64,000 bases of DNA from IMG/VR virus record IMGVR_UViG_3300042384_000211, positions 32,001 to 96,000 of that record. One strand, 5' to 3'. Below the pieces are notes generated by a model that did no database searches, had not been told where the DNA came from, and saw only the letters and a list, made by a program, of their open reading frames with translations. Made by a program: the position numbers and the translations under genes. Below, in pieces: positions 28,428 to 58,606 of this stretch (within the stretch, counting starts at the first letter, position 1; the number at the start of each line of letters is the position of its first letter). Source of the stretch: a virus.

Positions 28428-28560
28428 ATAATTTCCTTTATATAAAAGTACGCTTGATCAACAATGCGTATTACTGCAATTAAAAATAAAGTGTTTGATA
28501 TCACAAACACAAATACAATTATACACGATTTTGCATAATTGTCAACCTCTTTTTGGTCGT

Positions 28561-28583
28561 AAAAAACCCGCCGAAGCGGGTTT
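28561..28583 (-). terminator. terminator after tmRNA
   Basis: AAACCCGC-TTCG-GCGGGTTTTTT on the minus strand. Confidence 0.9.
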
Positions 28584-28945
28584 GGTTATTTCTGTTGCCA
28601 GGTAAGTCCTACCCCGGTTGTTTTAGACTAAGCTAAAACAGCAGCATCAGTACGTGAACCGAAGCGGAAGCCACGACCCATAGATACTTTTGCTACACCA
28701 TTTGTATTTGCTTTTTCTGCATTTACGATTTTTGCATTTAACGTGACCCCACGTGTTGCCCTTTATCCTATCTCACGCTGTCGAAACCTGGTCAGGCCCA
28801 TTAGTAAGTACATTAACCCGTTTGCGCTACGGTAACCCGCGGAAGGTCGTCATCTAGAATGACTCCGCATATATTGATTAAGTGGCATTAATGTACTTAC
28901 TGGTGGACCTGGGCGGAATCGAACCGCCGTCCAACATGCCTTACT
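28584..28945 (-). ncRNA. ssrA: circularly permuted (two-piece) tmRNA
   Basis: T-arm/acceptor end GGCGGTTCGATTCCGCCCAGGTCCACCA (ends 28901) precedes the 5' end GGGCCTGACCAGGTTTCGAC (starts 28799); 7-bp acceptor stem with G3.U; tag ORF 28720-28628; outer boundaries approximate. Confidence 0.9.
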
Positions 28946-28968
28946 TTAAGAGTTATACAACAATTTCT

Positions 28969-29211
28969 TTAATCAGTTGCCTTTTCCATGTAAGGAAGTT
29001 TACCCAACATGTGTAAACGCAACATTTGATGTTTTTTGTCAACCGCCACTTCTTCTGTTACACTAGCACCTTCGAGAACTTCTTTATCTTTAACAGGTGC
29101 CGCATATGAACGTTTGGCTAGTTGCTGTTGATTAACAACATTGCTCTGTTCATCTGCCTGTGCTACACCTACTGCTAATAGTGCTACGAATACTAAACTA
29201 CGTGCTAACAT
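28969..29211 (-). CDS. small secreted/periplasmic protein
   Basis: signal peptide ending AQA; GGAG RBS; internal repeat LAKRSY / LGKLPY. Confidence 0.7.
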   Translation of the reverse strand: MLARSLVFVALLAVGVAQADEQSNVVNQQQLAKRSYAAPVKDKEVLEGASVTEEVAVDKKHQMLRLHMLGKLPYMEKATD

Positions 29212-31729: not shown

Positions 31730-32347
31730 ATGTCAACTATTCCGTTCAGTTATTATCTCTATCATAGACTAACAGGTCTAAAATATTATGGCATTAAACA
31801 TGCTAATGGTTGTAATCCATCTGATCTGTGGACTAAATATTTTTCTTCTTCAATCAGAGTAAAACAATTAATTACAGAATACGGCAAAGATTCGTTTGAT
31901 GTAAAGATACGCAAAACATTTAACTCGTCGCATGACGCATTGATTTGGGAACATAAAGTTTTACGTAGACTCAACGCATCACAAAACCCTACATGGATTA
32001 ATAGACATAACGGTGGTAACAAATTTCGTTCCCCAATATCTCACACTGATAAAACTAAACAATTAATTTCTAAAAAAACTAAAGGAAGAAAATTCAGTGA
32101 TGACCATCGCAAAAAAATTAGCGAGGCATCGTTAACAGACAGAAAACATCGTAAACAAGCAGGATGGAAAATGCCACTAACTGCTGTAGACAACATGTTG
32201 CTGACTCGTCAACGGAAAATAGATTCTGGTGAAATCAATCCATATTCCACAGAAAGAAATGCTAAAATGGCCCTTTCAAAAACAGGAAAAAAACGTAAAT
32301 ATTTGCCCGATGGAACATTTATTATGATAGATCCTAATAACTTATGA
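31730..32347 (+). mobile_element. free-standing GIY-YIG-like homing endonuclease with NUMOD3 repeats
   Basis: YYLYHRLTGLKYYG; HTDKTKQLIS and SDDHRKKIS; antisense to neighbours; late promoter TATAAATA at 31703-31710. Confidence 0.8.
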
Positions 32348-44002: not shown

Positions 44003-44316
44003 TAGATTTAGTAAACAAATATGGCTTTCCCATTGTTATGGCAGTGGGCATGGGATTCATCATCAAATTCGTATTCGAATGGGCCACAAAAGAGGTAAAA
44101 CCAGTCATTTCAGACGCAAATACTGTGCTTATTGCCTTGATTGATCGCATACGTATGTTAGACAACGATTTAATACGTTTGAATCAAAAAGTAAACACTG
44201 TGTTACATCTACGTGGTAAGACAATTGAATTTGAACGTGTAGAAGCCGAGAAAGAAATTAATAAAGCACATTTAAAGAATGAAGACGATAAAACTGCAAG
44301 TGGTGGCAGTGACTAA
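43993..44316 (+). CDS. YvrJ/holin-like single-TM coiled-coil protein
   Basis: GFPIVMA TM segment; ALIDRIRMLDNDLIR matches ALDNRVKTMNHEIIR of the paralogue. Confidence 0.6.
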   Translation: MDVVDLVNKYGFPIVMAVGMGFIIKFVFEWATKEVKPVISDANTVLIALIDRIRMLDNDLIRLNQKVNTVLHLRGKTIEFERVEAEKEINKAHLKNEDDKTASGGSD

Positions 44317-45104
44317 TCAACATTAATATCGCTGTTGCTAACTGTTACAGCGATTTTTTGTGCTTCTGGAAAACGTGTACGAGTATTTTTACTACCAAGC
44401 AACACAATCACACGTTGTCCTAACTCAGTATCAAGTAGCATAACCACACAACCGCCACTTTCATTTATATAACCTGTTTTACTTACTCTTACATCATTAC
44501 TATTTCTAACCATTGGATTGGTGTTGCCAAATTGCCACCAACGACGTTTAACTTTGATACTTACATTAGGTTTACCACTAGCTTCGGTAATCTCTGTATA
44601 TTCGTTTGCGGCTAGGACTAATTTACCTAAATCACGGGCATTACTCACATTGCCTGCGTCTAATCCTGTAGGGTCGGCAAATGTGGTACTTGTCATGCCT
44701 AATACAAACGCAATATGATTCATTTCAGCTATACAACGAGCTAGACCACCCGGATAATTTGCGCCTAATGTATATGCGGCAAAGTTATCACTCTTGACAA
44801 TAGCAAGATCAATTAATTCACCACGAGTCAGCTGTTTAACGCTGCGCGGTAACCGAGTGTGATACTTATTAACCATTCTACGATCAAGTGTGATCATTTC
44901 ATCTAAGTTTTGGTTGGCATCTAACACCACCATCACTGTCATTAGTTTAGTAATGCTGGCAATAGGCTGTACACGATCAGCATTCTTTTCTAGTATAACT
45001 TCGCCTGTGTTATCTGCTACTAAAAAACTTTTAGCAGTAATAGGCTTTGCTACTACTGCGGTGCAGAATAGTAGCAGTATGATGAAACTACTTGCTCGTA
45101 GCAT
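44313..45104 (-). CDS. pbpG: D-alanyl-D-alanine endo/carboxypeptidase (peptidase S11, PBP7-like)
   Basis: signal peptide; SITK, SDN and KTG motifs. Confidence 0.85.
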   Translation of the reverse strand: MLRASSFIILLLFCTAVVAKPITAKSFLVADNTGEVILEKNADRVQPIASITKLMTVMVVLDANQNLDEMITLDRRMVNKYHTRLPRSVKQLTRGELIDLAIVKSDNFAAYTLGANYPGGLARCIAEMNHIAFVLGMTSTTFADPTGLDAGNVSNARDLGKLVLAANEYTEITEASGKPNVSIKVKRRWWQFGNTNPMVRNSNDVRVSKTGYINESGGCVVMLLDTELGQRVIVLLGSKNTRTRFPEAQKIAVTVSNSDINVD

Positions 45105-47100
45105 GATATGTTCCATCAAAATTTGCAGGAACACCCTGTTCCATACGCTCAATCATTAGTTCATAATAATGTTTAATATCAACATCATCGTTGTTGACTA
45201 ATTTTTTAGCCCATACAATAGCCTTGCCCCACGAACCTCGAGTATATTCTTTGCGATACTCTTCGTGCATATACAGATTAGTACGACCAACTGTATAAAT
45301 GTCAAGACCAATTGTTTTACCTTTAACAGCAATGTTATCTAGCCATACTACAGGAAATGCATCTTTACAATACTCAGCAGTTTTAGGACCAATGATTAGT
45401 AGGACACCATATGATTTAGTCTGTCCTTCTAGTCGAGCCGCTGTACTTACACTGTCACCTAATACGTCATAGCCAAACTTGCTCTTAGCACCAATGTTAC
45501 CAATTAAGGTTTCACCAGTGTTGACACCCGCACCCATACCAACTGGCGGACGACCACTGGCTACAAGTTCTACGTTAAAGTCCTCAATGGCTTTGATCAT
45601 TTCAAGTGCTGTCTGTACAGCAGTCTTGGCGTGATTAGCATCATCTAATGGAGCACCGTGTACGTGTAGTGACGCATCACCAATGAACTTAATCAGAGTA
45701 CCGTCGTTCTTAAGTACAGGAATACTCAGTGCTGTCATGTAGTCGTTCATGATCTGTGTGAGACCTTCTACATCATCTCCAAAACTTTCACCGAGTGTAG
45801 TAAAGCCACGTAGGTCAGTCATAACAATTGATAACTCTCGACGTTCACCACCTAACTTAATTAAGTCTGGATTCTTTTGCAAGCGTTCAACAATAGTAGG
45901 GTTAACATAACTACCAAATTGTTTCTTGATCTGTTGTTTCTGTAGGAACTCTGATACAAACTTAACGCCGTAAGCATGTAGCATAACTAGAACTATGCCT
46001 GCCGTTGGTACAATAGCATCAATTAAAAATTTGTAGTGCGAGAACAGGTACATACTAGCAGGAATTAAACTAGCAGTTAATACAATACCTACACCAAGTC
46101 CTACATAGACCCAACGGCTTAAGAACAAGATGATCAAACTGATAGCGATAAGTGCCAACAGTTCAGCACCAGGTGCCCAATCGGGACGTTCAATGTTTAC
46201 ATTGTTGGCTAATGTGCCAATTACAGCGGCCTGCATATCTTGAGGCCACACGTTACCTTTACTTGTTGCTACAGGATTATTAGTACCTGCGGCTGTAGTG
46301 CCCACAATAACAATATTGCCACCAAAATCGTCGGGCAAATCAACTGCCGATACTTGACGATTAGTCTGACTCCAGTCTACCCAGATACGTCCTTGACTGT
46401 CTGTACTGATAGGATTAAAGCCAGGAATACGCATCTTCTCTACACCTTGCGCATTTAACTTAACTTGGAAAGTATTAGTGTTGACTAAGACTCGCAGAAC
46501 TTCTAATGGTATACTAGGATATACATTATTGTCGTAGCCCACAAACAATGGCAGTCTACGGTTAACCCCGTCTATTTCTGGAAATGTGTTAGCAATACCA
46601 ACACCAACAGCATTCTGCTCTAAACTAGGAATGTTAGCAATGATGCCTGGATATTGTACAATAGTGTCAATGTACTCTGAGCCAATAACAGCACTACCTG
46701 GCTTACGTGGAATATTCTTAGTTGCTTGGCCGGGCATGTTGGTTAAGATAACAGGAAAGTCTGTTAATGCTTCAGCAAGGTAAGCATCACCACCTTGTCG
46801 ATCAGTCTCTGGCATCATAACAGTCCAAACAACCAGACCAGCATTATGACTATACAGGTCGCTGATCAGGTCTGCGTAAACATCACGTTTGAATGGCCAC
46901 TGTCCAAACTTGTCTAGAGTGGCTTCATCTATGTTTACAGTGTAGATATTATTTTCTACCGGGGGTTGACTGGTAATAAGCTGATCAAAATATCGTAATT
47001 TAACGCTTTCTACAAACGTAGGACCAGTAATAGTAATACCGACAATCAGTGCTAGGGTTAGGACCGCAGTCCAAGGTGAGAGTAAGATTTTTTTAAGCAT
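45088..47100 (-). CDS. CHASE2-domain class III adenylate cyclase
   Basis: VNIDEATL..GQWP CHASE2 domain, 3 TM segments, TDLRGFT, KFIGDA, YDVLGDSVSTAARLE. Confidence 0.93.
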   Translation of the reverse strand: MLKKILLSPWTAVLTLALIVGITITGPTFVESVKLRYFDQLITSQPPVENNIYTVNIDEATLDKFGQWPFKRDVYADLISDLYSHNAGLVVWTVMMPETDRQGGDAYLAEALTDFPVILTNMPGQATKNIPRKPGSAVIGSEYIDTIVQYPGIIANIPSLEQNAVGVGIANTFPEIDGVNRRLPLFVGYDNNVYPSIPLEVLRVLVNTNTFQVKLNAQGVEKMRIPGFNPISTDSQGRIWVDWSQTNRQVSAVDLPDDFGGNIVIVGTTAAGTNNPVATSKGNVWPQDMQAAVIGTLANNVNIERPDWAPGAELLALIAISLIILFLSRWVYVGLGVGIVLTASLIPASMYLFSHYKFLIDAIVPTAGIVLVMLHAYGVKFVSEFLQKQQIKKQFGSYVNPTIVERLQKNPDLIKLGGERRELSIVMTDLRGFTTLGESFGDDVEGLTQIMNDYMTALSIPVLKNDGTLIKFIGDASLHVHGAPLDDANHAKTAVQTALEMIKAIEDFNVELVASGRPPVGMGAGVNTGETLIGNIGAKSKFGYDVLGDSVSTAARLEGQTKSYGVLLIIGPKTAEYCKDAFPVVWLDNIAVKGKTIGLDIYTVGRTNLYMHEEYRKEYTRGSWGKAIVWAKKLVNNDDVDIKHYYELMIERMEQGVPANFDGTYHATSK

Positions 47101-47111
47101 AAGATTATTTA

Positions 47112-47363
47112 TTATCTGCTTTGACGTAATCGATCTAAATATTCTCGGCCAATCTTACCCTCTTCAAGTTCTTGCAGTGCAGCACTAACAGTACGATTAC
47201 GGTATTTTAGGTTTGAATCAGCATTCTGTGCAATACGTCTAGTAGACTCAATCTCACGTGCTCGTGTAGCGGCAATTAAAATCATTTCAAATCTATTACC
47301 CCCTACATTAACCAATGCCCGATCTACGTCAATTTCTGTGCCTAATTTATCGATGTAACTCAT
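47112..47363 (-). CDS. rpoZ: RNA polymerase omega subunit
   Basis: GNRFEMILIAATRAREI...AALQELEEGKI; promoter at 47396-47424. Confidence 0.85.
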   Translation of the reverse strand: MSYIDKLGTEIDVDRALVNVGGNRFEMILIAATRAREIESTRRIAQNADSNLKYRNRTVSAALQELEEGKIGREYLDRLRQSR

Positions 47364-47588
47364 TGCTGTTCCTTATATTGTTTAATAGTACAACTATTAT
47401 ACAGTCGTTAGAAATAAAAGTCAAGAGAAAGCCCACTTAGTTGGCTTTTTAATTGTATTTTTAAATGGCGACAATAAGAAAAATTTATAAGCAGTAGGCA
47501 TGACTGTTTCATGAAGTCAAGAGAAATTTAATCAAATATATTTTAAGTGTTAAATACTATGCAAGTCCAACTTTTATGAAAGGTTTAT

Positions 47589-47885
47589 ATGAAATTAATC
47601 TTAACAGTATTATTATTAGGTAGTTGTATTACAGCAAATGCTAATCAAGCACTAGCACAAAAAAGTGGTTGTCTGGCATGTCACGCAGTTGATCGTAAAA
47701 TCATAGGACCATCATATCAAGATGTTGCTAAGAAATACAAAGGTCAAGACGTCGAAGCAAAATTAGTAGACAAGGTTAAGAAGGGTGGTAGCGGAGTATG
47801 GGGTCCCATGCCTATGCCAGCACACAGTCCACAGGTTAAAGACGAAGATATTAAAACACTTGTTAAATGGGTGTTAGCGCAGTAA
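47589..47885 (+). CDS. class I cytochrome c (c551/c552-type)
   Basis: signal peptide, CLACH haem motif, GP, WGPMPMP axial Met. Confidence 0.93.
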   Translation: MKLILTVLLLGSCITANANQALAQKSGCLACHAVDRKIIGPSYQDVAKKYKGQDVEAKLVDKVKKGGSGVWGPMPMPAHSPQVKDEDIKTLVKWVLAQ

Positions 47886-47886
47886 T

Positions 47887-47912
47887 AAAAAGCCCCTTAA
47901 TTGGGGCTTTTT
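47887..47912. terminator. bidirectional terminator
   Basis: AAAAAGCCCC-TTAATT-GGGGCTTTTT. Confidence 0.85.
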
Positions 47913-47916
47913 GTTT

Positions 47917-48483
47917 TTATAGTTTACCAACTAGGTCCAAACTTGGTGCTAGTGTAGCACTACCTTCTTGCCATTTAGCCGGGCATACTTCACCCGGATG
48001 TTCACGTGTGTATTTTGCCGCTTTAACTTTACGTAATAGTTCTTTTGCATCACGACCAACACCACCTGGATTAATCTCAATAATCTGTACTACGCCATCT
48101 GGGTCAATAACAAATGTACCACGGTCAGCCAGGCCTTCTAAAGGAATAAGCACACCAAACTGTTCACTTAGCTGATGATTAGGATCACCAATCATTGTAT
48201 ATGTGATGTTACGGATTGTGTCTGTAGCATCTGCCCATGCTTTGTGTACAAAGTGTGTGTCTGTGCTTACGCTGTATACTTCTACACCTAATGCTTTAAA
48301 GTCACTAGCGTATACGTCTTGCAAGTCTGCTAGCTCTGTTGGGCAGACAAATGTAAAGTCTGCTGGATAGAAAAACACCACTGACCAATGGCCTTTTAAA
48401 TCTTGCTCTGTTACTTCTACAAACTGACCTTGACGATATGCTTGTGCTTTGAACGCTTGTACTTCTTTACCGATTAAACTCAT
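47917..48483 (-). CDS. ahpC: alkyl hydroperoxide reductase C (2-Cys peroxiredoxin)
   Basis: [29 protein letters not shown]. Confidence 0.96.
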
Positions 48484-48636
48484 TTACTTCTCCTTATTAA
48501 ATTGTTAATGTACATATATTATATATTAAAATTTTTAATAAAAAAAGCCCGATTAATAGGTTTTTTTAATTGTATTTTTTAATGACCGCAATAAGTTTTG
48601 TTTATAGGTTATGAAGTAACAATGATAAATAACTGT

Positions 48637-49104
48637 ATGAAACATATACATCACATCTTACCTCAATACCTAGGCGGCACTGACGATCCTAGTAACCTAA
48701 TAGAACTTACTGTAGAAGCTCACGCAGAAGCGCATCGCTTATTATACGAGCAACACGGCAATTGGCAAGACTATTGTGCGTGGCAAGCATTGTCCGGACG
48801 TATTGGGCAAGAAGAAATATTAAGGATGAAACAAGGTATGGCTAATAAAGGTAGAAAGCGTACACCAGAACAGATTGAAAATATTAAAGCAGCCGCAAGG
48901 AAACGAGTCGAAAGACATCGCGCTGATGGTACATTAGAACGTGCAGCTATTAAGCAAAGTGCATCAATGAAGGGAAAAGTAAAATCTGAAGAACATATAG
49001 CTAATTGGGCGGCTAGTCGAAAAGGGCATGCGGTATCTGAAGAAACACGAGAAAAAATAAGAAAGACATTAGCAGAAACTAGAGCCAATAAAAAAGCTCT
49101 ATAA
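48637..49104 (+). mobile_element. free-standing HNH homing endonuclease with NUMOD3-like repeats
   Basis: HHILP..GGTDDPSNLIEL...H..AH; start moved to the ATG 5 nt after ATAAATA. Confidence 0.8.
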
Positions 49105-49117
49105 AAGAGCTTTTATT
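49087..49117. terminator. bidirectional terminator between HNH and pqqA
   Basis: AAAAGCTCT-ATAAA-AGAGCTTTT. Confidence 0.75.
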
Positions 49118-49132
49118 ATCATGTGTTAAATC

Positions 49133-49204
49133 TTAACGATTCATTACATAAAGAGTCACTTCAAAACCGAAACGCATTTCTGTTGCTGCTGGTGTAGTCC
49201 ACAT
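49133..49204 (-). CDS. pqqA: pyrroloquinoline quinone precursor peptide PqqA (23 aa, not in ORF track)
   Basis: MWTTPAATEMRFGFEVTLYVMNR with W-x-x-P and the invariant E-x-x-x-Y; AGGAGA RBS; downstream terminator. Confidence 0.93.
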   Translation of the reverse strand: MWTTPAATEMRFGFEVTLYVMNR

Positions 49205-49351
49205 AATAATTCTCCTAGATAAAAGTCTAAAACAACGTTGTGTTGTTACTAGTACTTATACATATAATAACACCAATATGGCCTAAATAACATACGTAAA
49301 ATCATTAAAGACCGATAATTTTCTTGCGATTAGTTTAGATTGCTATATCTG

Positions 49352-49525
49352 TTATTTTTTCAAACACTGTGCGTGTACTTTAAATGTATCAAATTTTAAC
49401 CAATAGGTCAATGATTGTTTAGCATCTTCACATTGCGTTTCATTGGCAAATTCAAGTGTAACCTTGCCCGGTATATCTTTTGGGTCAGTTATGTTTACCA
49501 CTAGTATCAATAGTATCCAACTCAT
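49352..49525 (-). CDS. small exported protein with two Cys
   Basis: MSWILLILVV...F....QC......C; ATGA-coupled to the upstream gene. Confidence 0.6.
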   Translation of the reverse strand: MSWILLILVVNITDPKDIPGKVTLEFANETQCEDAKQSLTYWLKFDTFKVHAQCLKK

Positions 49526-50289
49526 TGGATTATGTGATTCCAGTAGACTATAGCCCAACGCCCATCGTCGTGTTCAACAAGCGCACTACAACTTTCTACC
49601 CAGTCACCATCGTTCATATAGATCATACCGTTGGGCATGTGTTTGATTTCCGGAGTATGTATATGTCCGCAGATTACACCATCGTATCCACGTTTGGCCG
49701 CATAGTCAGTTAGATTAGTTTCAAATTTAAATACAAAGTCTATTGCTTTCTTAACTTTATGTTTGAGATACTTACTAAGACTCCAATAGCCAAATCCCAA
49801 CTTACTTCTGCAGTAGTTAAAATAGTTGTTAAACCATAAAGCTACATCGTAGGCCTTATCACCTAAAAATCCAATCCATGGTGCTAACCTAGTAATACCA
49901 TCAAACATATCGCCGTGTGTAATTAGAAACAATTCTCCATCTACACTGCGATACTCTGCTTGATTAACAATACGTATACGGCCTAGACTAAAATGATGTT
50001 GTACCAGAGGACGGAGGAATTCGTCATGGTTACCGGTCACATAGGTTACATTACATCCTCGTTTACTGTAGCCTAGTATTCGTCGAATAACATTAGTGTG
50101 CGATTGTTTCCATGCCCACTTGTTCTGTTGTATCTTCCACCCATCAATGATGTCACCTATTAGGAATAGATTATCACAGGTGTGATGTTTGAGAAAGTTA
50201 TTCAGCAATTCAGCTTTAGCATCTTTAGTGCCAAGGTGAAAGTCAGATATACAAATTGTTTTGTATCTAATTAAGGGAACAGTGACCAT
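49522..50289 (-). CDS. metallophosphoesterase, LpxH/PlcP-like
   Basis: ISDFHLG, GDIIDGW, GNHDE, HGD, CGHIH, NDGDWVES. Confidence 0.88.
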   Translation of the reverse strand: MVTVPLIRYKTICISDFHLGTKDAKAELLNNFLKHHTCDNLFLIGDIIDGWKIQQNKWAWKQSHTNVIRRILGYSKRGCNVTYVTGNHDEFLRPLVQHHFSLGRIRIVNQAEYRSVDGELFLITHGDMFDGITRLAPWIGFLGDKAYDVALWFNNYFNYCRSKLGFGYWSLSKYLKHKVKKAIDFVFKFETNLTDYAAKRGYDGVICGHIHTPEIKHMPNGMIYMNDGDWVESCSALVEHDDGRWAIVYWNHIIQ

Positions 50290-50360
50290 ATGCCAATGGC
50301 CGCCATGATCGCTAATATACCACTAATTTCTTTTACAGCTTCTATAAAAATCTCAAACAT
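50271..50360 (-). CDS. 29-aa single-TM micropeptide
   Basis: MFEIFIEAVKEISGILAIMAAIGIWSLFP; AGGA RBS; fills the operon gap. Confidence 0.45.
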   Translation of the reverse strand: MFEIFIEAVKEISGILAIMAAIGIWSLFP

Positions 50361-50371
50361 AGTTTTTCCTA

Positions 50372-51799
50372 TTAGAAGTTGTACTGCAATTGCACACGTA
50401 GGGCATCTGCTTTAAAGTTAGCATAGTCTTGTTTTGCTATTGTAGTAGCAGTTGCTCCTGTTACTAAATTGCTACGGTTCATCATATGATAGTAAGCCAC
50501 AAGTTCAACTTCTGGAGCAATTTGCCATTCAGCTCCTATCTCCCAATCGTTAACCTTGTTCATCGGTGAGTTAGTTTCTGCTTTTGACGCACCATCAAAG
50601 TATTGCCATCTAACAAATGGAATTAAAGTACCATTAGTATCTAACACTTTGAAGTTGTCAATCTTATACATAGTTTGAATGTAGCCACCGTTTAAGTTAG
50701 TTTCTTTGATAATACCATCAGTGCTAGCAGTAGTATCTAAGCCAGGAGTTTTACCCCAGTTCCACTCACCTTGTAGACCTAATGGCTGTGGGTACATCAT
50801 AAAACTTACACCCACACGTTGATCTTTAAAACCAGTTGTGTTGCCTGCTTCTAATGTTGGTGTTTTAGTTGCGTAAACATTGTTGCCCATATTTTTTCTA
50901 TATGCACTACCTGTTCTTACATACTTGCCCGAGTAACCTTGTACACCAGCTTCGTAGATTTGACCGCTTTCGGTTTTCCATGGGTAAGTAGCACGTGCCA
51001 CAACGTGGTAGTTGTCATTACGATCTTGTTGGTTAGCACCTTGACCATTATAAACACCCAAGGCAACCATACCGTAGTTACCCGAATGTTTTAAACCGCC
51101 GTCTTGAATTTCTTTAAAGAGCTTTTGAACGTTGTCCGGTGTGTAGTAATAAAACGCACCCAAATCACGCTCGTCACGTACTGCACTATTAAATGCGTCA
51201 GCGCGATCAAGTGCTAGACGATTTTGTGAAGATTGTAAGTTTTCAAAGCCATATGGTACTTTACTTTGTCCAACACGAACGCGGTGTACTTTGTCTTTGG
51301 TCAAGTTAACATCACCATAAGCATCACGCAGTTGCGCTACGTTACCTGTGGTACCTGCTGTACTAGCAAAGTCAGGTTGAATATAATAATCCAAACGCTC
51401 ACCAGCTGAACCAGAAATGATCACACGTGCTCGACGGATAAGAAAGTTTTTGTCTTGATCAGCAAGAGAGTTTTTATTACCTACAGATCGATCTGACCAA
51501 AGGTTGACTCCTTCGTCACCACTAAGCATAGTAGTATTGCGCACTTGTAAATAGCCACGAATGTTCATTTTACTAGCCGCATGTACAGTGGTATCTTTTT
51601 CTTTTTTAACTGCGCCTATTTCACCAGTATGGCCTTTGTTTAGCAGTGCGCCTTCTTCTTCTGTAAGTACACCTTTCATAACCAGTGCATTAACAATGTC
51701 TGTGGTACTGTCTGCGTGAGCTTGTTTTAATCCTGCCATTGATAGTGCAAATGCTATTACTACATAATACATTATTGATTTAACTTGTTGTATGGTCAT
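50372..51799 (-). CDS. phosphate-selective porin (OprO/OprP-like)
   Basis: signal peptide, LVMKGVLTEEE N-terminal helix, IRRAR, GQSKVPYGFE, RDLG, C-terminal Phe. Confidence 0.8.
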   Translation of the reverse strand: MTIQQVKSIMYYVVIAFALSMAGLKQAHADSTTDIVNALVMKGVLTEEEGALLNKGHTGEIGAVKKEKDTTVHAASKMNIRGYLQVRNTTMLSGDEGVNLWSDRSVGNKNSLADQDKNFLIRRARVIISGSAGERLDYYIQPDFASTAGTTGNVAQLRDAYGDVNLTKDKVHRVRVGQSKVPYGFENLQSSQNRLALDRADAFNSAVRDERDLGAFYYYTPDNVQKLFKEIQDGGLKHSGNYGMVALGVYNGQGANQQDRNDNYHVVARATYPWKTESGQIYEAGVQGYSGKYVRTGSAYRKNMGNNVYATKTPTLEAGNTTGFKDQRVGVSFMMYPQPLGLQGEWNWGKTPGLDTTASTDGIIKETNLNGGYIQTMYKIDNFKVLDTNGTLIPFVRWQYFDGASKAETNSPMNKVNDWEIGAEWQIAPEVELVAYYHMMNRSNLVTGATATTIAKQDYANFKADALRVQLQYNF

Positions 51800-51836
51800 T
51801 AATATTCCCCTTATATATATTATTTAAACACACAAA

Positions 51837-51865
51837 GATTACAGTAATGTTACAAATAGATTAAA
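51837..51865 (-). promoter_or_regulatory. Pho-box-like direct repeats
   Basis: TTTAATC-N4-TGTAACA-N4-TGTAATC at 11-nt period, upstream of the porin. Confidence 0.65.
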
Positions 51866-51885
51866 TTTTTAATACACATAGCCAA

Positions 51886-51912
51886 AATAAAACCCGCCTC
51901 AGCGGGTTTATT
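51886..51912 (-). terminator. intrinsic terminator
   Basis: AAACCCGC-CTCA-GCGGGTTT. Confidence 0.8.
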
Positions 51913-51924
51913 GTTTTGAAGTAG

Positions 51925-52086
51925 TTAGATCCTAACCACTGACCACTTACCATTGAACGGCTTACCTTCGGCCTTGTGTTTCAGTATCTTCGTAAACTCT
52001 TTTTTCTTAAGTTTAACAATGGTTTCTGTATCATGGTCGAGACAAGCACGATATAACTTAGTGAGTAATTTACTCTGTTTCATCAT
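51925..52086 (-). CDS. 53-aa basic protein (not in ORF track)
   Basis: MMKQSKLLTKLYRACLDHD...KWSVVRI; AGGAGG RBS; followed by a terminator. Confidence 0.7.
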   Translation of the reverse strand: MMKQSKLLTKLYRACLDHDTETIVKLKKKEFTKILKHKAEGKPFNGKWSVVRI

Positions 52087-52157
52087 GATGTCCTCCTTGT
52101 GTACTATTTACACTAATTGTTAAAATAAAAGATTACAATTTAGATTACATATAGATT

Positions 52158-52184
52158 AAAAAAGCCCCAGTTAAGGGGCTTTTT
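52158..52184 (-). terminator. terminator of porin gene
   Basis: AAAAAAGCCCC-AGTTAA-GGGGCTTTTT. Confidence 0.85.
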
Positions 52185-52208
52185 AATTATTAGACTAAGA
52201 AGTAAATC

Positions 52209-53420
52209 TTAGAAGAATAAGATAGCACCTGCTGATACTGAACGTGATTTACCTTCTGCACCGTTTTGTGCTTCTGATTTAACGTCTGAGTATTCAGCAA
52301 CTAAGTTCACGTGTTTTGTGAGTGGGTGATAAGCACCAACAGTCCACATTTCGTTTTTCGAAACTAAAGCTGTAGCTGTTTCGCCACTGTTACGATCTAA
52401 TTTACTTTGACCATAACTTAGACCAAGTTTGGTAGCAGTAGGCAATGTGTATGTACCTTGCACGTAGCCGCCATTTGAATCACGACGTTTACCTGTAGCA
52501 TCAAAGCCGTCTAGTAATTGTAGTGAACGGCCAATACCTTTACCATCAAAGTAGTAAGCAGTTAACCCGTATGGACCAGCAGACAAGTTTGTACCAACGT
52601 CCCATGCATAAGCACGGCTGTCGGCGTTAGCACCAGATAGGCCTTCAACTTTTTGTGAAATAGCACTTGACCAAACTTTAGCAGCAATAGGGCCTGCTAG
52701 TGAGTAAGATACTTTACCTTCGAATGCTGGTTGAGCGCCGCCACGTCCTGTTGAAGTAGCTGAAGCAGCTTGTACACCTGCTGTTACTGCATTTAAGTCA
52801 GCTGTTTGAGCATTCCATGCTTGTGTTACACCAGCAGTGAATTGGAAGCCGTCGAAGTTTGGTGATGTGTAGGCAACTTGTGATTTCCAGTCAGCGTACA
52901 TATAACCAGTCCCAATACGACCTAACGTTGTTGTGTTACCAGCTAGTGCACCAGCGCCTGCACCAACACCCAGCAATGTCATGTCGTTAAGGATTGCATC
53001 AGAAGCGTAGATACCTAAATCTTTACCTAGTTTTACACTACCCCATGATTTATCACCGATGGTTAAGAATGCTTGACGATTTTCTTGGTTAGCTGTTTGA
53101 ATACCGGCTTGTGTTGTAGAAGCACCCGGATTGATAGCAATTGTAAAACCGATGTCTAGATCATTTTGACGTGACTTACCAGAAACTGATAATACGTTTG
53201 GTAATAAACCAGTTGTGATATTTGATTCGTTACGTTGACCTGTAGCATTAGGTCCACCTAGACCACCAACTACTGCACTGCCTGTGCCGCGTGTGTTTGT
53301 GTAGTAAGCGTTTACAACGCCACCGATGTCTAGTGTCCAATCACCAGCTGGAATTTGAATGCCAGCGTGAGCAGTTGAATACATACTTGCTAATAATGTT
53401 GCTAATAATAATTTCTTCAT
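52209..53420 (-). CDS. outer membrane porin (Gram-negative type)
   Basis: MKKLLL signal peptide with AAGGAG RBS, amphipathic beta strands, C-terminal Phe. Confidence 0.85.
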   Translation of the reverse strand: MKKLLLATLLASMYSTAHAGIQIPAGDWTLDIGGVVNAYYTNTRGTGSAVVGGLGGPNATGQRNESNITTGLLPNVLSVSGKSRQNDLDIGFTIAINPGASTTQAGIQTANQENRQAFLTIGDKSWGSVKLGKDLGIYASDAILNDMTLLGVGAGAGALAGNTTTLGRIGTGYMYADWKSQVAYTSPNFDGFQFTAGVTQAWNAQTADLNAVTAGVQAASATSTGRGGAQPAFEGKVSYSLAGPIAAKVWSSAISQKVEGLSGANADSRAYAWDVGTNLSAGPYGLTAYYFDGKGIGRSLQLLDGFDATGKRRDSNGGYVQGTYTLPTATKLGLSYGQSKLDRNSGETATALVSKNEMWTVGAYHPLTKHVNLVAEYSDVKSEAQNGAEGKSRSVSAGAILFF

Positions 53421-53571
53421 TACGATACTTCTCCTTTTATTGGATAACACTAATATGTTATACTATCAGTGTATAGTATTTATAATGATGTGTCAACCTT
53501 TTGTTGTTTTTTGATAACATTGTTGTAAAAATACAACAGTTATTAATACCGTTACAGTATCGATTCTGCTG

Positions 53572-54927
53572 TTATTGCCCTTGTATTACAGTTATTGCCT
53601 GACAGGCACTAGCGCAACTACTATTAATACTGTAAAACTGTTGCACTGTACCTTGCTGATTTAAGTTTAAACTTCTAGCACCTGCTCCACTTAGAGTAAT
53701 GTCAGCCATGTGTGCAGCACTGCCCTGTTGAGTTATGTCTACTGTCTTATTACCGCCACTTACTGTCAAATCTAAGTGGTGATTGCCTGCGTCTTTCTGC
53801 AAGACCGAGACTGTATTAGCATTATTGTTAACTGTCGCGTATACACCCTTGGCGCCGCCTGTACTCTGCTGGATAACATCAACGTTATTATTGTTACCGA
53901 GAATATTTAAATCGGTATAGTTTGCAACAGTTGACGCTGTACCAGATTGGGTTATATCAACTGTATTTGAACTACCATTTCCGTAGTAGTCAACATAGTT
54001 ATTTCTTGTGCCGGTTTGATTTACCACAATGGTATTGTTGTTGCCTATCTGTTCAATGTACACCTGACTGTCCTGTGTTGTCCTATTGATAAAGGCCTGC
54101 ATAGAAGCTGATTTTTCAACGTCTATAGAAAAGGCGGCTGAACTACCGCCACAACATAAACTAGGAGCAACTGGTTCTGCAGGTGGAGCAGTAGACCCGG
54201 CATTAGGAGCCACAGCACCAAATGTCTGCCCATTCAATGCAGTAGTGCCCTGAATTTCATCTATAAACAACATCGGGCTTAGTGCTGTATCACCAAGATT
54301 AAATGAGGCAAATCCTAATATGTACGTACCAGTTTCTGGCACTGTAAAGCGAGCCTGTTGCCACCCAGTTGAACCATAAGAACCTGTAGCATAGTTACCT
54401 GTACCAGGATTAGTAAATCCCAGTAGAGCATAGCGTTGTTGACTGTTGTTTAAGTTAGGAGTAATACCACCATTGGTAGCATGTGTCAGAGTCATCATAC
54501 TGCCGTCATTAAAGGGTGTATAGTCCGTACTTAAATAATTCCAACCAAATGTATATGTGGTTCCTGCTTGTAGAGATATTTCTCGTTTGATCCAAGAAGC
54601 ATTAGTAGGAGTAGCATTACCACCACCTCCATTTTGACTTTGAAATGTTAAGTAGTTTCTTATGGCTGTATTTTCTACTGAAGTTAATCCTAACTGAGTA
54701 GTGGCCGTATTGAACTGCACACTGCCTGTGGGTTGAAGACGACCCATCTTTGTACCATAAGGATTCACTGTCCAATTCTTTCCGCCACCGGGACTGACAC
54801 TGGTAGTGCCCAATACTGTAACATCACCGCCGCTTGCGGTCCAGCCAGTTAAATTGCCAGACTCAAACCCCAACTGGGCCAGAGCATTATTACATATGAA
54901 TAACATAACAAGTGCAATTAATCTCAT
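53572..54927 (-). CDS. secreted protein with N-terminal beta-sandwich domain and C-terminal curlin-like repeats
   Basis: signal peptide; repeats IEQIGNNNTIVVNQTG and ITQQG. Confidence 0.75.
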   Translation of the reverse strand: MRLIALVMLFICNNALAQLGFESGNLTGWTASGGDVTVLGTTSVSPGGGKNWTVNPYGTKMGRLQPTGSVQFNTATTQLGLTSVENTAIRNYLTFQSQNGGGGNATPTNASWIKREISLQAGTTYTFGWNYLSTDYTPFNDGSMMTLTHATNGGITPNLNNSQQRYALLGFTNPGTGNYATGSYGSTGWQQARFTVPETGTYILGFASFNLGDTALSPMLFIDEIQGTTALNGQTFGAVAPNAGSTAPPAEPVAPSLCCGGSSAAFSIDVEKSASMQAFINRTTQDSQVYIEQIGNNNTIVVNQTGTRNNYVDYYGNGSSNTVDITQSGTASTVANYTDLNILGNNNNVDVIQQSTGGAKGVYATVNNNANTVSVLQKDAGNHHLDLTVSGGNKTVDITQQGSAAHMADITLSGAGARSLNLNQQGTVQQFYSINSSCASACQAITVIQGQ

Positions 54928-56012
54928 CTGCGTAACACTCCAGAATTCTGTTTAATACGCACTACATTACCACCCGGATCACCCGAACCAATTATAGCCG
55001 AAGCTATGTTGTCATCATGTGTAATTTCAATCGAAGTATTACTTTCGTAGCCCTGTGTTTTAACTTCAGCATAGTGATCTTCGCTTTGGCGGAACGCAAC
55101 GCCTCGACCACGTGCTTGAATAGTATCACCGTCGGGTCGTTCCCATCTCACACAGATATTAGTTGTTGGATTACAACCGGTTTTGCCGCTATCGAAACTG
55201 TAAGGTAGTACCACAGCCTTAGCGTCGGGTTCGTTGTCCATACGCTGTGACATTTGACTGACCTGTATAGCTTCCAATTCTTCTTGTTCTAGTTCGCGTT
55301 TACTTTTTGCCGCGTCTTTACTAGCTCGAATAATTTCTGGCGGGCGAGCAATAATAAGACTGTTGCCAATCTTACCTTCAACTGTATTAATAATAACCGG
55401 AGGACTAGGCATCATGTTAGCACTGGTTACATAGGTACCTTCAAATGCTTTGTCTAGGGTAACTATGCCAGCAAGTGTACTGACTTCAATCTTGCCTACT
55501 TTACATAAGTTTTCTTCTAGCTCGTATTCTTTGATCTTTTCGCCTTCTTTACAGCTAGGTACAAGAATTACTAGACTCTGCCCTGCTTCGTCTACAGTCA
55601 TGTTAAAGTCTGTACCTCGAACAGCAATTGATGCTGTGGGGGTTTTAATGTCTACTCGTTGTGGATTATTTTTAGCAATTTGTCCACTGGCATAACGTAC
55701 TGTGCCCATACCTACTTTAAGAGCTAGCTTGCCTGCATCGGATTTTTTAGGATCAAAAACAAAGTCGTCTATCATTAGTCGACTGTTTTCTGTTATTTTT
55801 ACTTTGGTGTCATCTTTAAATGTAATGTTGCTAACACAGCCGCCTGTAACATAGGTATCCATACTTTCTATGGCGGCACCTTTATTACCAGGCAGGGTCT
55901 GTTTAGCACGCTCTATTGAGCAAGCGGTACCTTTAGTATCGCTTACTGTCCCAATGCCCGCCCATGCGTTAGTAACTGCTACTAAGCATGCTATTGCAAG
56001 CAATAGTTTCAT
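54924..56012 (-). CDS. FecR-domain periplasmic protein
   Basis: F.D.TKVKITENS.L.ID, KTPTASIAVRGTDF. Confidence 0.85.
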   Translation of the reverse strand: MKLLLAIACLVAVTNAWAGIGTVSDTKGTACSIERAKQTLPGNKGAAIESMDTYVTGGCVSNITFKDDTKVKITENSRLMIDDFVFDPKKSDAGKLALKVGMGTVRYASGQIAKNNPQRVDIKTPTASIAVRGTDFNMTVDEAGQSLVILVPSCKEGEKIKEYELEENLCKVGKIEVSTLAGIVTLDKAFEGTYVTSANMMPSPPVIINTVEGKIGNSLIIARPPEIIRASKDAAKSKRELEQEELEAIQVSQMSQRMDNEPDAKAVVLPYSFDSGKTGCNPTTNICVRWERPDGDTIQARGRGVAFRQSEDHYAEVKTQGYESNTSIEITHDDNIASAIIGSGDPGGNVVRIKQNSGVLRR

Positions 56013-56015
56013 TGA

Positions 56016-56801
56016 CTATCTCACTATTGCTGATACTGGACTTACTATAGCGCCGCTACTCGAACGAACAGTAATTGTATTATTATTACCGGTTGTGCTG
56101 ATATTAAATGTAGTATCATTTGTACCTTGTTGCTGTGTAGTAATACTGTTAAAATCACCTGTAGTTGAGGTAACTAAACTATGACCAGCACTACCTGCAG
56201 CATCAATTTGTTGTATATTGAATATGTTGTTACTACCACTAATAGTGTTGGTAATATCAGCGTTGCTAGTAGTTACAGTAGTGGTCAATTGGTTACTACC
56301 ACCGTTAATAGTAGTTGATAATGCATTATCACTACCAACAATATTAGTAATCAACATATTAGTACTACCAGTAACAGTTTCAGTAACAGTATTACGCATA
56401 CCATTAGTGTTAGTATCACCGATTGTAAGTTTGCTTTGATTACCGTCACCAGTTAGAGTACTTGTAAAGCTATTATTTCCACCTTTGATGTTGTACTGTG
56501 ATTGGTTATCATCGCCGGTTTGTGTAATAGTAACACCGTTATTGCTACCGTTAATTGTAGCATAATTACTTGTACTAGGTGCTGTTACTGTTAATGTACT
56601 TAGACCTGTTGCGTCAACTGCTACACTACCAGCAATACCACCAACATCGTTTGTGCCGCCGACTTGTTCAATTGTAACAATATTGGTGCTACCTAATTGT
56701 TCAATGTAAACACGGTTAGGTCCTGTTGGACCTGCGGCCATCAATGATGTTGATAACGCTAAAAACATCATACTTACTGTTGCTTTTAAATTATATTTCA
56801 T
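56016..56801 (-). CDS. curlin-repeat (CsgA/CsgB-like) secreted protein
   Basis: signal peptide; repeated Q.G..N units. Confidence 0.75.
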   Translation of the reverse strand: MKYNLKATVSMMFLALSTSLMAAGPTGPNRVYIEQLGSTNIVTIEQVGGTNDVGGIAGSVAVDATGLSTLTVTAPSTSNYATINGSNNGVTITQTGDDNQSQYNIKGGNNSFTSTLTGDGNQSKLTIGDTNTNGMRNTVTETVTGSTNMLITNIVGSDNALSTTINGGSNQLTTTVTTSNADITNTISGSNNIFNIQQIDAAGSAGHSLVTSTTGDFNSITTQQQGTNDTTFNISTTGNNNTITVRSSSGAIVSPVSAIVR

Positions 56802-56834
56802 CGTCGTGCTCCTTGGATTTTTAAAATCCTATTA

Positions 56835-57701
56835 TTATTTTATTGTTTCTAACAGCGGGTATGTTATACCATCTGTTTGTACTACAGGCTTAGGTTCTTC
56901 TTTGTAAGACCAATGCCCTTTACGAACCCCTTCTCGAATAGTAGCAATCACGGCCGCTTTTACTGCTAGGCTTGTTGCTTTATTGATACTTTCATTGATA
57001 CTCATACCAGTTTCAGCTTCGACGGCTTTTGTGCCTTCTTCAACAAACTTTAATACACCAAGTTTGTCCATGTAGCTTAATACTGTTTTAGTAACTGTTA
57101 CAGTTGTTAATACTTCACCTGTATTAACACTTACTGTTCTTAATGTAACCGTTACTGTATCACTTTGGTATTGCGTTTGTGCGCCAATACCTAGTATACG
57201 AACACCACTACCACCCGTAAGCAGGTTACTATCGTAGCCTGTTATACTTCCTTCAACAATAACACCAGCAAACATCATTGGTGGTAATGCCTTAGCTTCA
57301 CGACCTTGATATTGTTCACGCATCTGACGAATCATCTGACGTTCTTTAATCAAATTGTCTAACCCTACACGTTCTAACACAGTAAACCAACGTTGGTCGC
57401 CTACATCTTGTAGGGCGCCAATTAGGTATGCTTCTGCACCTTGCGATACTGCTGTACTAAAACTAGCCACGTTGGGTACATTTTTACGCTGTCCGGTTTT
57501 ATCTAAGAAACTATATACTGCTACCGGAACGGGGCCGCCGCTCGGAGGTAATACCTTATTCTCTGGTTTAGTAAAGTATGTTTCACGTACTATCTCAGGT
57601 TTATCAAATTGCTCACTTGTTATTTGTTCACGGATAGCACTACTTGTTGCACATCCTGTTAACAGTGCGGTTATTAATAAGGATATAAGTGTTTTATTCA
57701 T
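56835..57701 (-). CDS. csgG: curli secretion channel CsgG-like lipoprotein
   Basis: lipobox LTGC; AVYSFLDKTGQRK, FSTAVSQGA, WFTVLERVGLDNLIKERQ. Confidence 0.9.
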   Translation of the reverse strand: MNKTLISLLITALLTGCATSSAIREQITSEQFDKPEIVRETYFTKPENKVLPPSGGPVPVAVYSFLDKTGQRKNVPNVASFSTAVSQGAEAYLIGALQDVGDQRWFTVLERVGLDNLIKERQMIRQMREQYQGREAKALPPMMFAGVIVEGSITGYDSNLLTGGSGVRILGIGAQTQYQSDTVTVTLRTVSVNTGEVLTTVTVTKTVLSYMDKLGVLKFVEEGTKAVEAETGMSINESINKATSLAVKAAVIATIREGVRKGHWSYKEEPKPVVQTDGITYPLLETIK

Positions 57702-57710
57702 GTATATTCC

Positions 57711-58208
57711 TTAAAAATAAAATGAGCCTGCAGGCACTTTCATTGTTGTAATATTATTAACGTTAGCTAGGTCCTGTATAGTGATGATAATTAACCCATT
57801 ATCATTACCTGCACCCAAACTCCATTGAATACTATTTCCGCCTAAGTTTGGAATATTACCGCATACTACACCCGCTGTAGTACAAGTAGCACCTTCTCCA
57901 AACATACTGTCAGTTAGTTGTTTAGCCAACTGACTATAAATTCTTGATTCCAGATTAGCAATAAAGCGTGCCTGCGGAGTATTAAGTGCAGCAGATTCTG
58001 CTTTATCTCGAATAGCTTCTGCGGCAGATTCGCGCTTGTCTTTTGCTTGATCCTCTAATTGTTTAATCGTAAGGGCATGTATACCAAATCCTTGTCCGTG
58101 AAATGCCGGACTATTAAAGGTGTGTACCATTTCTGCGGCCTGCGCAATATTAGCGCCAGCAGTTAGCACGACGACCATTAAAAGATTGTAGAACATAGAT
58201 TTAATCAT
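57711..58208 (-). CDS. csgF: CsgF-like curli assembly protein
   Basis: signal peptide followed by MVHTFNSPAFHG; F..NLESRIYSQLAKQL...MFGE; directly upstream of csgG. Confidence 0.75.
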   Translation of the reverse strand: MIKSMFYNLLMVVVLTAGANIAQAAEMVHTFNSPAFHGQGFGIHALTIKQLEDQAKDKRESAAEAIRDKAESAALNTPQARFIANLESRIYSQLAKQLTDSMFGEGATCTTAGVVCGNIPNLGGNSIQWSLGAGNDNGLIIITIQDLANVNNITTMKVPAGSFYF

Positions 58209-58279
58209 GTGAAAGCCCCTGTTAGTATTATTTAACGGGGGCTCATTGATAAATTATAGTGTATTATTACTTAACCGTT

Positions 58280-58606
58280 TTAGTCGGATACTACTGCTTC
58301 TGCTTCGTTAATACGTCTGATAATTTCTTCGTAAAATGTATCTACCTCACCACCAAATTTACCTATTAGATAATTAGCAGCATCTCGACAGTAACTATAC
58401 TGTTTAGACTGGTATCCGTTAATAAACTCATGATGTAATTTAACCCACGATTCTAATTGTGGCATGTCAGTTAGCGTTATTTTATCTGCAGGTATAACAC
58501 AAAATACTGCCAATGGTTGGCCTTCGACATCTATTGTTTCTAGATCTAGTACTGTGTATTTTTCTCGGAGTTTTCCTGCATTTTCTTTACCGAATATAAT
58601 TTCCAT
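58280..58606 (-). CDS. stand-alone protein resembling the C-terminal tail of the class III cyclase
   Basis: aligns by eye with the last ~100 aa of 45088..47100. Confidence 0.55.
   Translation of the reverse strand: MEIIFGKENAGKLREKYTVLDLETIDVEGQPLAVFCVIPADKITLTDMPQLESWVKLHHEFINGYQSKQYSYCRDAANYLIGKFGGEVDTFYEEIIRRINEAEAVVSD

Follow-up and report, generated by a model that had tools for sequence, protein, structure and literature searches.

Phages of aquatic bacteria can carry blocks of genes for curli export, known as type VIII secretion (T8SS), and here we analyse such a block and its CHASE2 adenylate cyclase in a 64,000-nucleotide stretch of viral DNA (IMG/VR record IMGVR_UViG_3300042384_000211, positions 32,001 to 96,000; hereafter the window). 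Zaragoza-Solas et al. (2020) found csgF and csgG with three unnamed neighbours in pelagimyophages; freshwater fonsimyophages were reported without the block, and the published block is marine (PMC7029224). Buchholz et al. (2022) discussed whether the CsgGF of phage Melnitz might form a pore that times lysis, and took csgA and csgB to be missing (PMC9004378). The Melnitz GenBank record already names curlin, FecR and cyclase genes, and Wittmers et al. (2022) described a viral T8SS region with CsgA/B-like fibres, FecR and an adenylate cyclase in both podoviruses and myoviruses, with an alphaproteobacterial origin, transfer between phage families and expression in metatranscriptomes (PMC9599517). 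In their reading, FecR is a regulator related to iron and the cyclase one that acts on curli; they estimate that the block makes up approximately 0.1% of the viral proteins assembled in the GOV2.0 ocean survey (PMC9599517). An earlier note on the window, made from the sequence alone, had described csgF and csgG as noted in marine myophages without a function, a statement that is outdated given the coverage of FecR, curlins and cyclase by Wittmers et al. (PMC9599517).

A second set of described systems is bacterial. In Campylobacterota, CHASE2 cyclases cluster with a FecR-domain outer-membrane protein (PMC9239204), and in S. meliloti the outer-membrane protein NsrA is needed for CyaK/CyaD signalling (PMC7529298). 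The pairing of FecR with CHASE2 cyclases, which the earlier note had taken as established in bacteria, is indeed published for Campylobacterota and Burkholderia (PMC9239204, PMC5192318), and FecR-domain genes also neighbour the closest bacterial homologues of the phage cyclase (see below). The published accounts of the viral T8SS that we examined mention neither the CHASE2 domain nor this bacterial context of FecR, CHASE2 and type I secretion, and our literature search found no paper tying CHASE2 to curli-bearing phages.

The block in the window represents the published viral type VIII secretion block in a split, freshwater form. Compared with the pelagiphage T8SS (HTVC008M gp014-019; Melnitz gp99-104; PMC9599517), it has the same genes in the same order, at 34-47% identity. 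It differs in that the cyclase gene is split off by a 6.5-kb island and stands beside omega-like and DD-carboxypeptidase genes, in that a stand-alone copy of the cyclase C-terminus precedes csgF, and in that it belongs to a lake water phage whose clade includes records of up to 357 kb. Among sequencing runs, 22 labelled as lake water metagenomes contain the stretch, 13 of them with at least half of the sampled words, so this is a freshwater phage. The kind of system is therefore already known, and what is added here is the freshwater habitat, the split arrangement and an Asp/Ser variant of the cyclase active site.

The earlier note had described a tightly packed operon of csgF, csgG, curlin, FecR and curlin fusion from 58208 to 53572, with a CHASE2 cyclase on the same strand beyond a block of about 6.5 kb, and all of these genes are intact and in place on the minus strand (Table 1). 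Its range also took in the 108-aa open reading frame (ORF) before csgF, which is a paralogue of the cyclase C-terminus. Counting this ORF, the gaps between operon genes are 3-71 nt, and FecR overlaps the curlin fusion by 4 nt. The cyclase lies 6.5 kb downstream of the fusion.

Table 1. The split curli/cyclase block, listed in the direction of transcription (positions are those of the window).
Feature	Position	Strand	Evidence
108-aa cytoplasmic protein, stand-alone paralogue of the last ~100 cyclase residues	58280..58606	-	jackhmmer, tblastn
Regulatory spacer before csgF, TTAAATA in hairpin loop	58209..58279	-	sequence, motif conservation
csgF-like curli assembly protein, signal peptide	57711..58208	-	Pfam CsgF 6.2e-10
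csgG outer-membrane lipoprotein pore	56835..57701	-	Pfam CsgG 8.2e-49, NCBIfam CsgG 1.3e-52, lipobox LLTGC
Curlin-like fibre subunit, 261 aa, signal peptide	56016..56801	-	hhalign, 11/22-residue period
Exported FecR-fold protein, 362 aa	54924..56012	-	Pfam FecR 1.2e-10, AF2 model
Curlin fusion, 451 aa	53572..54927	-	Curlin_rpt 3.3e-4, PDB 8c50 E 7.7e-4
Inserted cargo island splitting the block	47112..53450		Pfam and NCBIfam matches
CHASE2 class III adenylate cyclase, 670 aa	45088..47100	-	CHASE2 1.2e-37, Guanylate_cyc 1.4e-17

Across phages, the cyclase keeps company with the operon, as the earlier note had predicted. In Melnitz (OM43 host) and HTVC008M (SAR11 host), csgF, csgG, curlin, FecR, curlin and cyclase are contiguous and co-oriented with gaps under 20 nt, the same gene order occurs in more than 100 IMG/VR loci, and every informative IMG/VR record has the cyclase on the same contig. 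When loci are anchored on FecR (n=33), the cyclase lies downstream on the same strand in 22 and 10-16 kb further on in three, while the other eight end within 4.2 kb of the operon. When they are anchored on the cyclase (n=80), 42 have at least 9 kb upstream, and csgF, csgG and FecR all lie within 10 kb in 40 of these; in the remaining two, csgG is on the same strand, 13-16 kb upstream. The gap between operon and cyclase in relatives is 0-16 kb, and the same-strand distance from FecR to cyclase ranges from 6 nt to 8 kb with a median of about 2.1 kb, i.e., one curlin gene. In four loci (L054, L058, L059 and L073), the operon is inverted or lies at the cyclase's other flank, still no more than 10 kb away, and L032-L034 have no second curlin, the FecR stop there overlapping the start of the cyclase. 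Judged by comparative genomics, a functional link between cyclase and operon is well supported.

The bacterial relatives of the cyclase add a second line of evidence. The closest homologues (n=80) come mainly from Alphaproteobacteria (SAR116, Bradyrhizobium, Rhodospirillaceae, Thalassospira, Roseovarius and others), are 30-37% identical and align over their full length to the last residue. An ORF matching the phage FecR profile lies within 8 kb in 31 of the 80 and is directly adjacent in 24 (20 on the same strand, 4 divergent). An ABC exporter gene stands beside the cyclase in 31 and an HlyD-family gene in 29, so that FecR and/or ABC/HlyD secretion genes are near 53 of the 80. Several of the FecR neighbours are giants (1200-2500 aa) in which the FecR domain lies near the N-terminus and cadherin-like, Big, Laminin-G and RTX repeats come after it, and a typical order is (FecR adhesin), ABC, HlyD, cyclase. 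These operons share with the phage block the full-length cyclase homology, a FecR domain as direct neighbour and a system that would place a filamentous protein on the cell surface. The bacterial side differs in using type I secretion, in often having FecR fused to the adhesin and in having a Ser or Thr plus Asn active site.

Curli genes are absent from these bacterial neighbourhoods: csgG, csgF or curlin was found within 8 kb of none of the 80 cyclases, and five genomes bearing the FecR/cyclase pair had no CsgG match. Conversely, a search of 401 alphaproteobacterial genomes found seven with a CsgG 39-48% identical to that of the phage, and these seven csgG loci (with csgF and curlin-like genes) have no FecR or cyclase within 9 kb. 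Since the cyclase loci are without csgG and the csgG loci without FecR or cyclase, the phage block joins two units that are separate in bacteria, at least in this limited sample. The SAR116 genome with the closest cyclase has, in this order, an ABC-C39 gene, an HlyD gene with an N-terminal cyclic nucleotide monophosphate (cNMP)-binding domain (L119, 3462-5822, plus strand), the CHASE2 cyclase and a small FecR protein, and from its domains this locus is a candidate cyclic AMP (cAMP)-gated type I secretion system.

Other CHASE2 systems, S. meliloti NsrA with CyaK/CyaD1/CyaD2 and the Campylobacterota cluster of CHASE2, phosphodiesterase, FecR and TPR genes, resemble the phage block in having an outer-membrane or periplasmic partner for the cyclase (PMC7529298, PMC9239204). 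However, the partner there is a beta-barrel outer-membrane protein, whereas the phage has a CsgG pore and a soluble FecR, and a cAMP phosphodiesterase and a Clr/CRP receptor are known there but were not found in the phage.

The phage FecR protein was modelled with AlphaFold 2 (AF2) at a predicted local distance difference test (pLDDT) score of 82.9. The model predicts a beta-sandwich (residues 20-220), a long helix (225-260), a disordered linker and a small beta domain (285-355). Residues 49-218 match the CCSSD of PupR (6ovk; Z 15.2, root-mean-square deviation (rmsd) 2.7 Å, 135 residues), and residues 17-113 match the “cell surface anchoring domain” of MpIBP, an ice-binding RTX adhesin from Marinomonas (5ix9; Z 7.0, rmsd 2.2 Å, 73/76 residues). 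RTX adhesins of the LapA/MpIBP type keep their N-terminal domain as a periplasmic plug, with the remainder outside.

The periplasmic FecR fold is what the protein shares with FecR/PupR anti-sigma cell-surface signalling; it differs from those systems in having no cytoplasmic anti-sigma domain, no transmembrane helix and no FecI/FecA partner. A hydrophobicity and domain scan found no anti-sigma domain and no transmembrane helix beyond a cleavable signal peptide, and there is no sigma factor or TonB-dependent receptor among the region's genes. Because the anti-sigma domain and the helix are missing, the protein has the FecR fold but is not an iron-citrate anti-sigma factor, and the “iron regulator” label of the literature is not supported by its domain content.

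The length of FecR is constant (360-370 aa in 88 phage copies), its terminal I.I.Q motif is conserved, and its 4-nt overlap with the second curlin is kept in lineages 33-90% identical. A pattern scan of genome contigs found no close bacterial relatives of the phage FecR. We also considered its C-terminus as a curlin-like tether for the fibre and set the idea aside as too weak: hhalign gave a probability of only 50% (E 1.6e-4), and a curlin hidden Markov model scored a median of 4.6 bits (maximum 11.4 bits) against approximately 0 for shuffled sequences.

The cyclase has a transmembrane helix at residues 4-30 and a transmembrane cluster at 308-382, at least four membrane segments in all, and its CHASE2 match covers residues 15-325. 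From this topology, CHASE2 is periplasmic and the catalytic domain cytoplasmic. The C-terminal tail is conserved, and the metal-binding Asp429 and Asp475, as well as Lys471 and Arg556, are invariant in phage copies. The canonical adenine-binding pair is Lys/Asp, and the second substrate position is Asp in the window cyclase. At the transition-state Asn position, however, the window cyclase has Ser (VSTAAR versus the motif VNxAxR). Among 98 phage cyclases, the combination is Asp/Ser in 57, Thr/Asn in 39 and Ser/Asn in one, whereas the 80 nearest bacterial homologues have Ser or Thr with Asn in 72 and Asp/Ser in one. Phage cyclases show a coupled active-site switch here, one that might alter activity or nucleotide specificity. 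Mutating the transition-state Asn in mammalian cyclases lowers activity but does not abolish it.

The 108-aa protein before csgF has no hydrophobic segment and is homologous to the end of the catalytic domain and the conserved tail of the cyclase. A jackhmmer search started from it recovered the C-terminal parts of approximately 98 phage cyclases and 12 small ORFs of 106-128 aa, and tblastn placed its matches inside cyclase genes; against the window's own cyclase, BLASTP gave a weak match (E 0.055, residues 568-656). ORFs of 106-128 aa stand before csgF in only a subset of loci (L003-L008, L027, L054, L058, L068, L071 and L073). In the ESM Atlas, the protein fell with viral hypothetical clusters only, the nearest named one being Guanylate_cyc (0.86), which we take as a lead only. 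It may act as a decoy of the cyclase or regulate it, and in podoviruses, where a short “histidine kinase” has been described upstream of csgF, that protein is perhaps its counterpart.

Each of the five operon products carries one N-terminal hydrophobic segment of the signal-peptide type. The mature N-terminus of CsgF reads TFNSPAFHGQG, which resembles the plug motif of E. coli CsgF, and csgF adjoins csgG in all relatives examined. CsgG has an LTGC lipobox, and its NCBIfam match is below the equivalog cut-off. The 261-aa curlin has no match in a Pfam scan, and its identity is supported only by its profile, which matches the fusion's curlin part (98.6% probability by hhalign, E 6.5e-16); its autocorrelation peaks at 11 and 22 residues, and its homologue in Melnitz and HTVC008M carries a curlin-repeat annotation.

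The curlin fusion joins a variable N-terminal domain (approximately residues 18-255) to a C-terminal curlin beta-solenoid (285-450). Its Curlin_rpt match is just over the cut-off, and CsgA of NCBIfam matches at 1.8e-3. In the AF2 model, the C-terminal 165 residues form a 14-strand beta-solenoid (pLDDT 80-93), which matches the E. coli CsgA fibril 8enq at Z 14.1 with a poor rmsd of 8.5 Å and is outscored there by SufB/SufD beta-helices (Z 14-16). The N-terminal 250 residues or so have a pLDDT below 50 and a weak NCBIfam match to a PEP-CTERM-associated family, and the length of the fusion among relatives is 372-759 aa. Secreted curlin-repeat subunits that form a predicted beta-solenoid are thus part of the operon.

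Like the curli of E. coli and Alphaproteobacteria (CsgA/B/E/F/G), the phage system has a CsgG lipoprotein, CsgF and curlin-repeat subunits with Sec signals. It differs in being without csgE, csgC and csgD, in the large variable N-terminal domain on one curlin and in having FecR inside the operon. A family scan of the operon ORFs found no match to csgE, csgC/H or csgD, but alphaproteobacterial curli systems are also without csgE, csgC and csgD (PMC9599517), so the missing genes do not define this subtype.

Upstream of csgF, by 26 nt, is the motif TAAATA (58234-58229; TTAAATA at 58235-58229), which sits in the loop of a hairpin in which AGCCCC (58243-58238) pairs with GGGGCT (58219-58214). The motif is kept before csgF in 7/9 diverged relatives. 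In the region from -70 to -5, it precedes 38 of 165 genes versus 3.7% of random windows, a six-fold enrichment that exceeds chance. The earlier note had called it a late-type motif: its presence upstream of the operon stands, and “late” is by analogy with T4, where a comparison with the reference T4 late promoter (TATAAATA) makes a T4-type late promoter core plausible. The omega-like gene next to the cyclase is preceded by TTGACT-17-TATAAT (47424-47396; an 11/12 match to sigma-70), with a terminator-like hairpin upstream.

A single freshwater metatranscriptome sample has RNA contigs with 90-95% likeness (i.e., from relatives) that lie on csgG, on the curlin gene, on FecR at its 5' end and on the cyclase in its 3' half; other parts of the stretch were not covered, which is uninformative. 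DNA is possible in the library and contigs cannot give strand or level, so we treat this as a weak hint that the curli and cyclase genes are expressed.

We give an even chance to the reading that the block is a composite of a curli unit and a FecR/CHASE2 sensor pair, in which a periplasmic FecR would report the state of pore or fibre to CHASE2 and so alter cAMP. The curli unit, of alphaproteobacterial type (CsgG, CsgF and two curlins), would equip the infected cell's outer membrane with a pore and fibres, probably late in infection. The exported FecR-fold protein would work with the periplasmic CHASE2 of the inner-membrane cyclase. In bacteria, this second unit sits in the type I secretion operons of giant RTX adhesins, often with FecR at the adhesin N-terminus, and in phages CsgGF and curlins would have taken the place of the type I system and the RTX adhesin. 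FecR would then pass the state of the secretion pore or surface fibre to CHASE2, the cyclase would change cytoplasmic cAMP synthesis, and host factors would read the cAMP. Within this chain, we infer the contact between FecR and CHASE2, the direction of signalling, the ligand, cAMP as the product and the downstream effect. A path from surface structure through FecR and CHASE2 to cAMP is plausible because the N-terminal part of FecR resembles the RTX plug and the bacterial giants carry an N-terminal FecR domain, and the gene neighbourhoods as a whole support secretion- or surface-coupled cAMP signalling, a scheme with which the export signals and membrane topology agree. To our knowledge, no ligand or mechanism has been established for any CHASE2 domain.

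A bolder version of this reading, which we think unlikely, makes the FecR/CHASE2 pair a general sensor of surface-appendage state that can be plugged into type I systems (RTX adhesins, Alphaproteobacteria) or type VIII systems (curli, phages). FecR would lie under the CsgG pore or thread it like an RTX anchor; fibre load, contact or blocked secretion would be turned into cAMP or another cyclic nucleotide that times the late programme, and the Asp/Ser site might change the nucleotide. More generally, the block is among the most widespread multi-gene cargo units of aquatic phages, here extended to lake water, and the triad of secreted surface filament, FecR domain and CHASE2 cyclase that recurs in bacteria and phages gives a testable hypothesis. 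If it is true, a virus would be installing its own outside-in signalling path in the host envelope.

Several points weigh against the sensor reading. Co-occurrence in phages may partly reflect shared descent and not joint function, because all phage copies stem from one or a few acquisitions. In the window, the cyclase is 6.5 kb from the operon and appears to have its own sigma-70-like promoter via the omega-like gene, so it may follow a different schedule and need not share the apparently late expression of the operon. The links of FecR to CHASE2, CsgG and curlins rest on genomic evidence, and the curlin-like FecR C-terminus is faintly supported. The Ser at the transition-state Asn, found in 57/98 phage copies versus 1/80 bacterial ones, makes cyclase activity or product uncertain. 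The earlier note had suggested that the signal could tune lysis timing or host CRP regulons, but a search for cNMP-binding proteins found none in the contig or in the records of five relatives, of which two (328 and 357 kb) are at least 92% complete. Finally, Wittmers et al. (2022) draw the arrow in reverse, with FecR and cyclase regulating curli (PMC9599517), and since the SAR116 HlyD has a cNMP-binding domain, it can equally run from cAMP to secretion.

That reversed arrow belongs to the alternative in which the block's purpose is fibre production, either for aggregation (“sibling capture”) or for shielding from other phages, with FecR and cyclase regulating curli from upstream. Proposed by Wittmers et al. 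(2022; PMC9599517) and Zaragoza-Solas et al. (2020; PMC7029224), it fits a secretion set that is complete and includes two curlins, one of them with a variable N-terminal domain resembling an adhesin tip, and it fits the SAR116 HlyD, whose cNMP-binding domain suggests cAMP control of secretion there. We nevertheless find it doubtful: CsgG and CsgF have no cytoplasmic part to read cAMP, no cNMP-binding protein or CsgD-like regulator was found in the phage records, and no clumping was seen in Melnitz-infected OM43 cultures (Buchholz et al., PMC9004378). Moreover, CHASE2 is an extracytoplasmic input domain, so this alternative still needs a named periplasmic signal. It is decidedly unlikely, in our view, that the two units are linked by descent only, with cyclase and FecR as a self-contained pair that reprogrammes the host by raising cAMP and with unrelated curli genes that entered the same variable region. 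In lineages of 33-90% identity, the FecR gene lies between the two curlin genes, with a 4-nt overlap into the second; linkage outlasts inversions, the block has moved whole between phage families (PMC9599517), and in bacteria the same pair is again tied to surface-adhesin secretion. These observations have to be set against an operon-cyclase junction that is prone to insertions (the gap ranges from 6 nt to 16 kb), a window cyclase that seems to have its own promoter and a bacterial FecR/cyclase pair that works without csgG.

The remaining alternatives leave the sensor pair aside. CsgG, with or without CsgF, could be an ungated channel for solute uptake or lysis-timing leakage, the curlin-like proteins not being fibre subunits (proposed in PMC9004378 and PMC7029224). 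No csgE gate gene was recognised and two further porin genes lie in the adjacent island, but alphaproteobacterial curli are also without csgE (PMC9599517), the csgA and csgB that Buchholz et al. assumed to be missing are not (PMC9004378), and two signal-peptide curlin-repeat proteins are conserved in the operon, one of them modelled as a beta-solenoid; a pore alone is therefore very improbable. That the operon proteins are ordinary virion components, the outcome that the earlier note had named as speaking against its proposal, is scarcely credible. We found no evidence supporting it, and the five N-terminal export signals indicate that these proteins are not virion parts; CsgG has a lipobox, the cyclase at least four membrane segments, and the families are those of envelope proteins. 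Tail-fibre and structural genes are sited elsewhere in the window, outside the curli operon.

The window is part of a single viral contig of 140.8 kb with a completeness of approximately 40% (CheckV). Its gene content is T4-like, including tail fibres, a large virion protein, GroEL, DnaK and DNA ligase. Two relatives with the same block (G417 and G418) are 328-357 kb at 92-100% completeness, so some genomes in this clade of T4-like phages with curli genes are jumbo-sized, exceeding those of HTVC008M and Melnitz more than twofold.

The cargo island holds two porins, an LpxH/PlcP-like metallophosphoesterase, an HNH gene (opposite strand), AhpC, cytochrome c and the omega-like gene. It is absent from Melnitz and HTVC008M, its content varies even between relatives that are approximately 90% identical, and the wide variation in operon-cyclase distance between loci marks the point just before the cyclase as a cargo-insertion hot spot. 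The porins (50372-53450, minus strand) are of the OprO/P type (1e-38) and Porin_4 type (6.5e-21), each preceded by a TAAATA motif. The Porin_4 gene (52.4-53.4 kb) has very deep RNA-contig cover with many joints, which probably includes porins of other organisms. We considered the metallophosphoesterase (49522-50289) as a cAMP phosphodiesterase for the module, on the Campylobacterota pattern, and rejected it: its best match is of the LpxH type (7.8e-13, far below the cut-off), it has no PDB match, and it is best described as PlcP/LpxH-like.

Two genes flank the cyclase. One, for a D-Ala-D-Ala carboxypeptidase (44313-45152, minus strand; Peptidase_S11 3e-40), has its likely start within the last part of the cyclase gene, and a gene of this kind comes directly after the cyclase in 12 of 91 related loci, which may point to a link with peptidoglycan that is specific to a clade. 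On the other side, the omega-like gene (47112-47363, minus strand; Rpb6 6e-10, rpoZ 5e-6) lies 11 nt upstream of the cyclase and is also found near the cyclase in four other loci (L040, L065, L075 and L087). Elsewhere in the window, ARAGORN identified a tmRNA gene of the permuted type (28537-28993, minus strand) with the tag peptide AEKANTNGVAKVSMGRGFRFGSRTDAAVLA.

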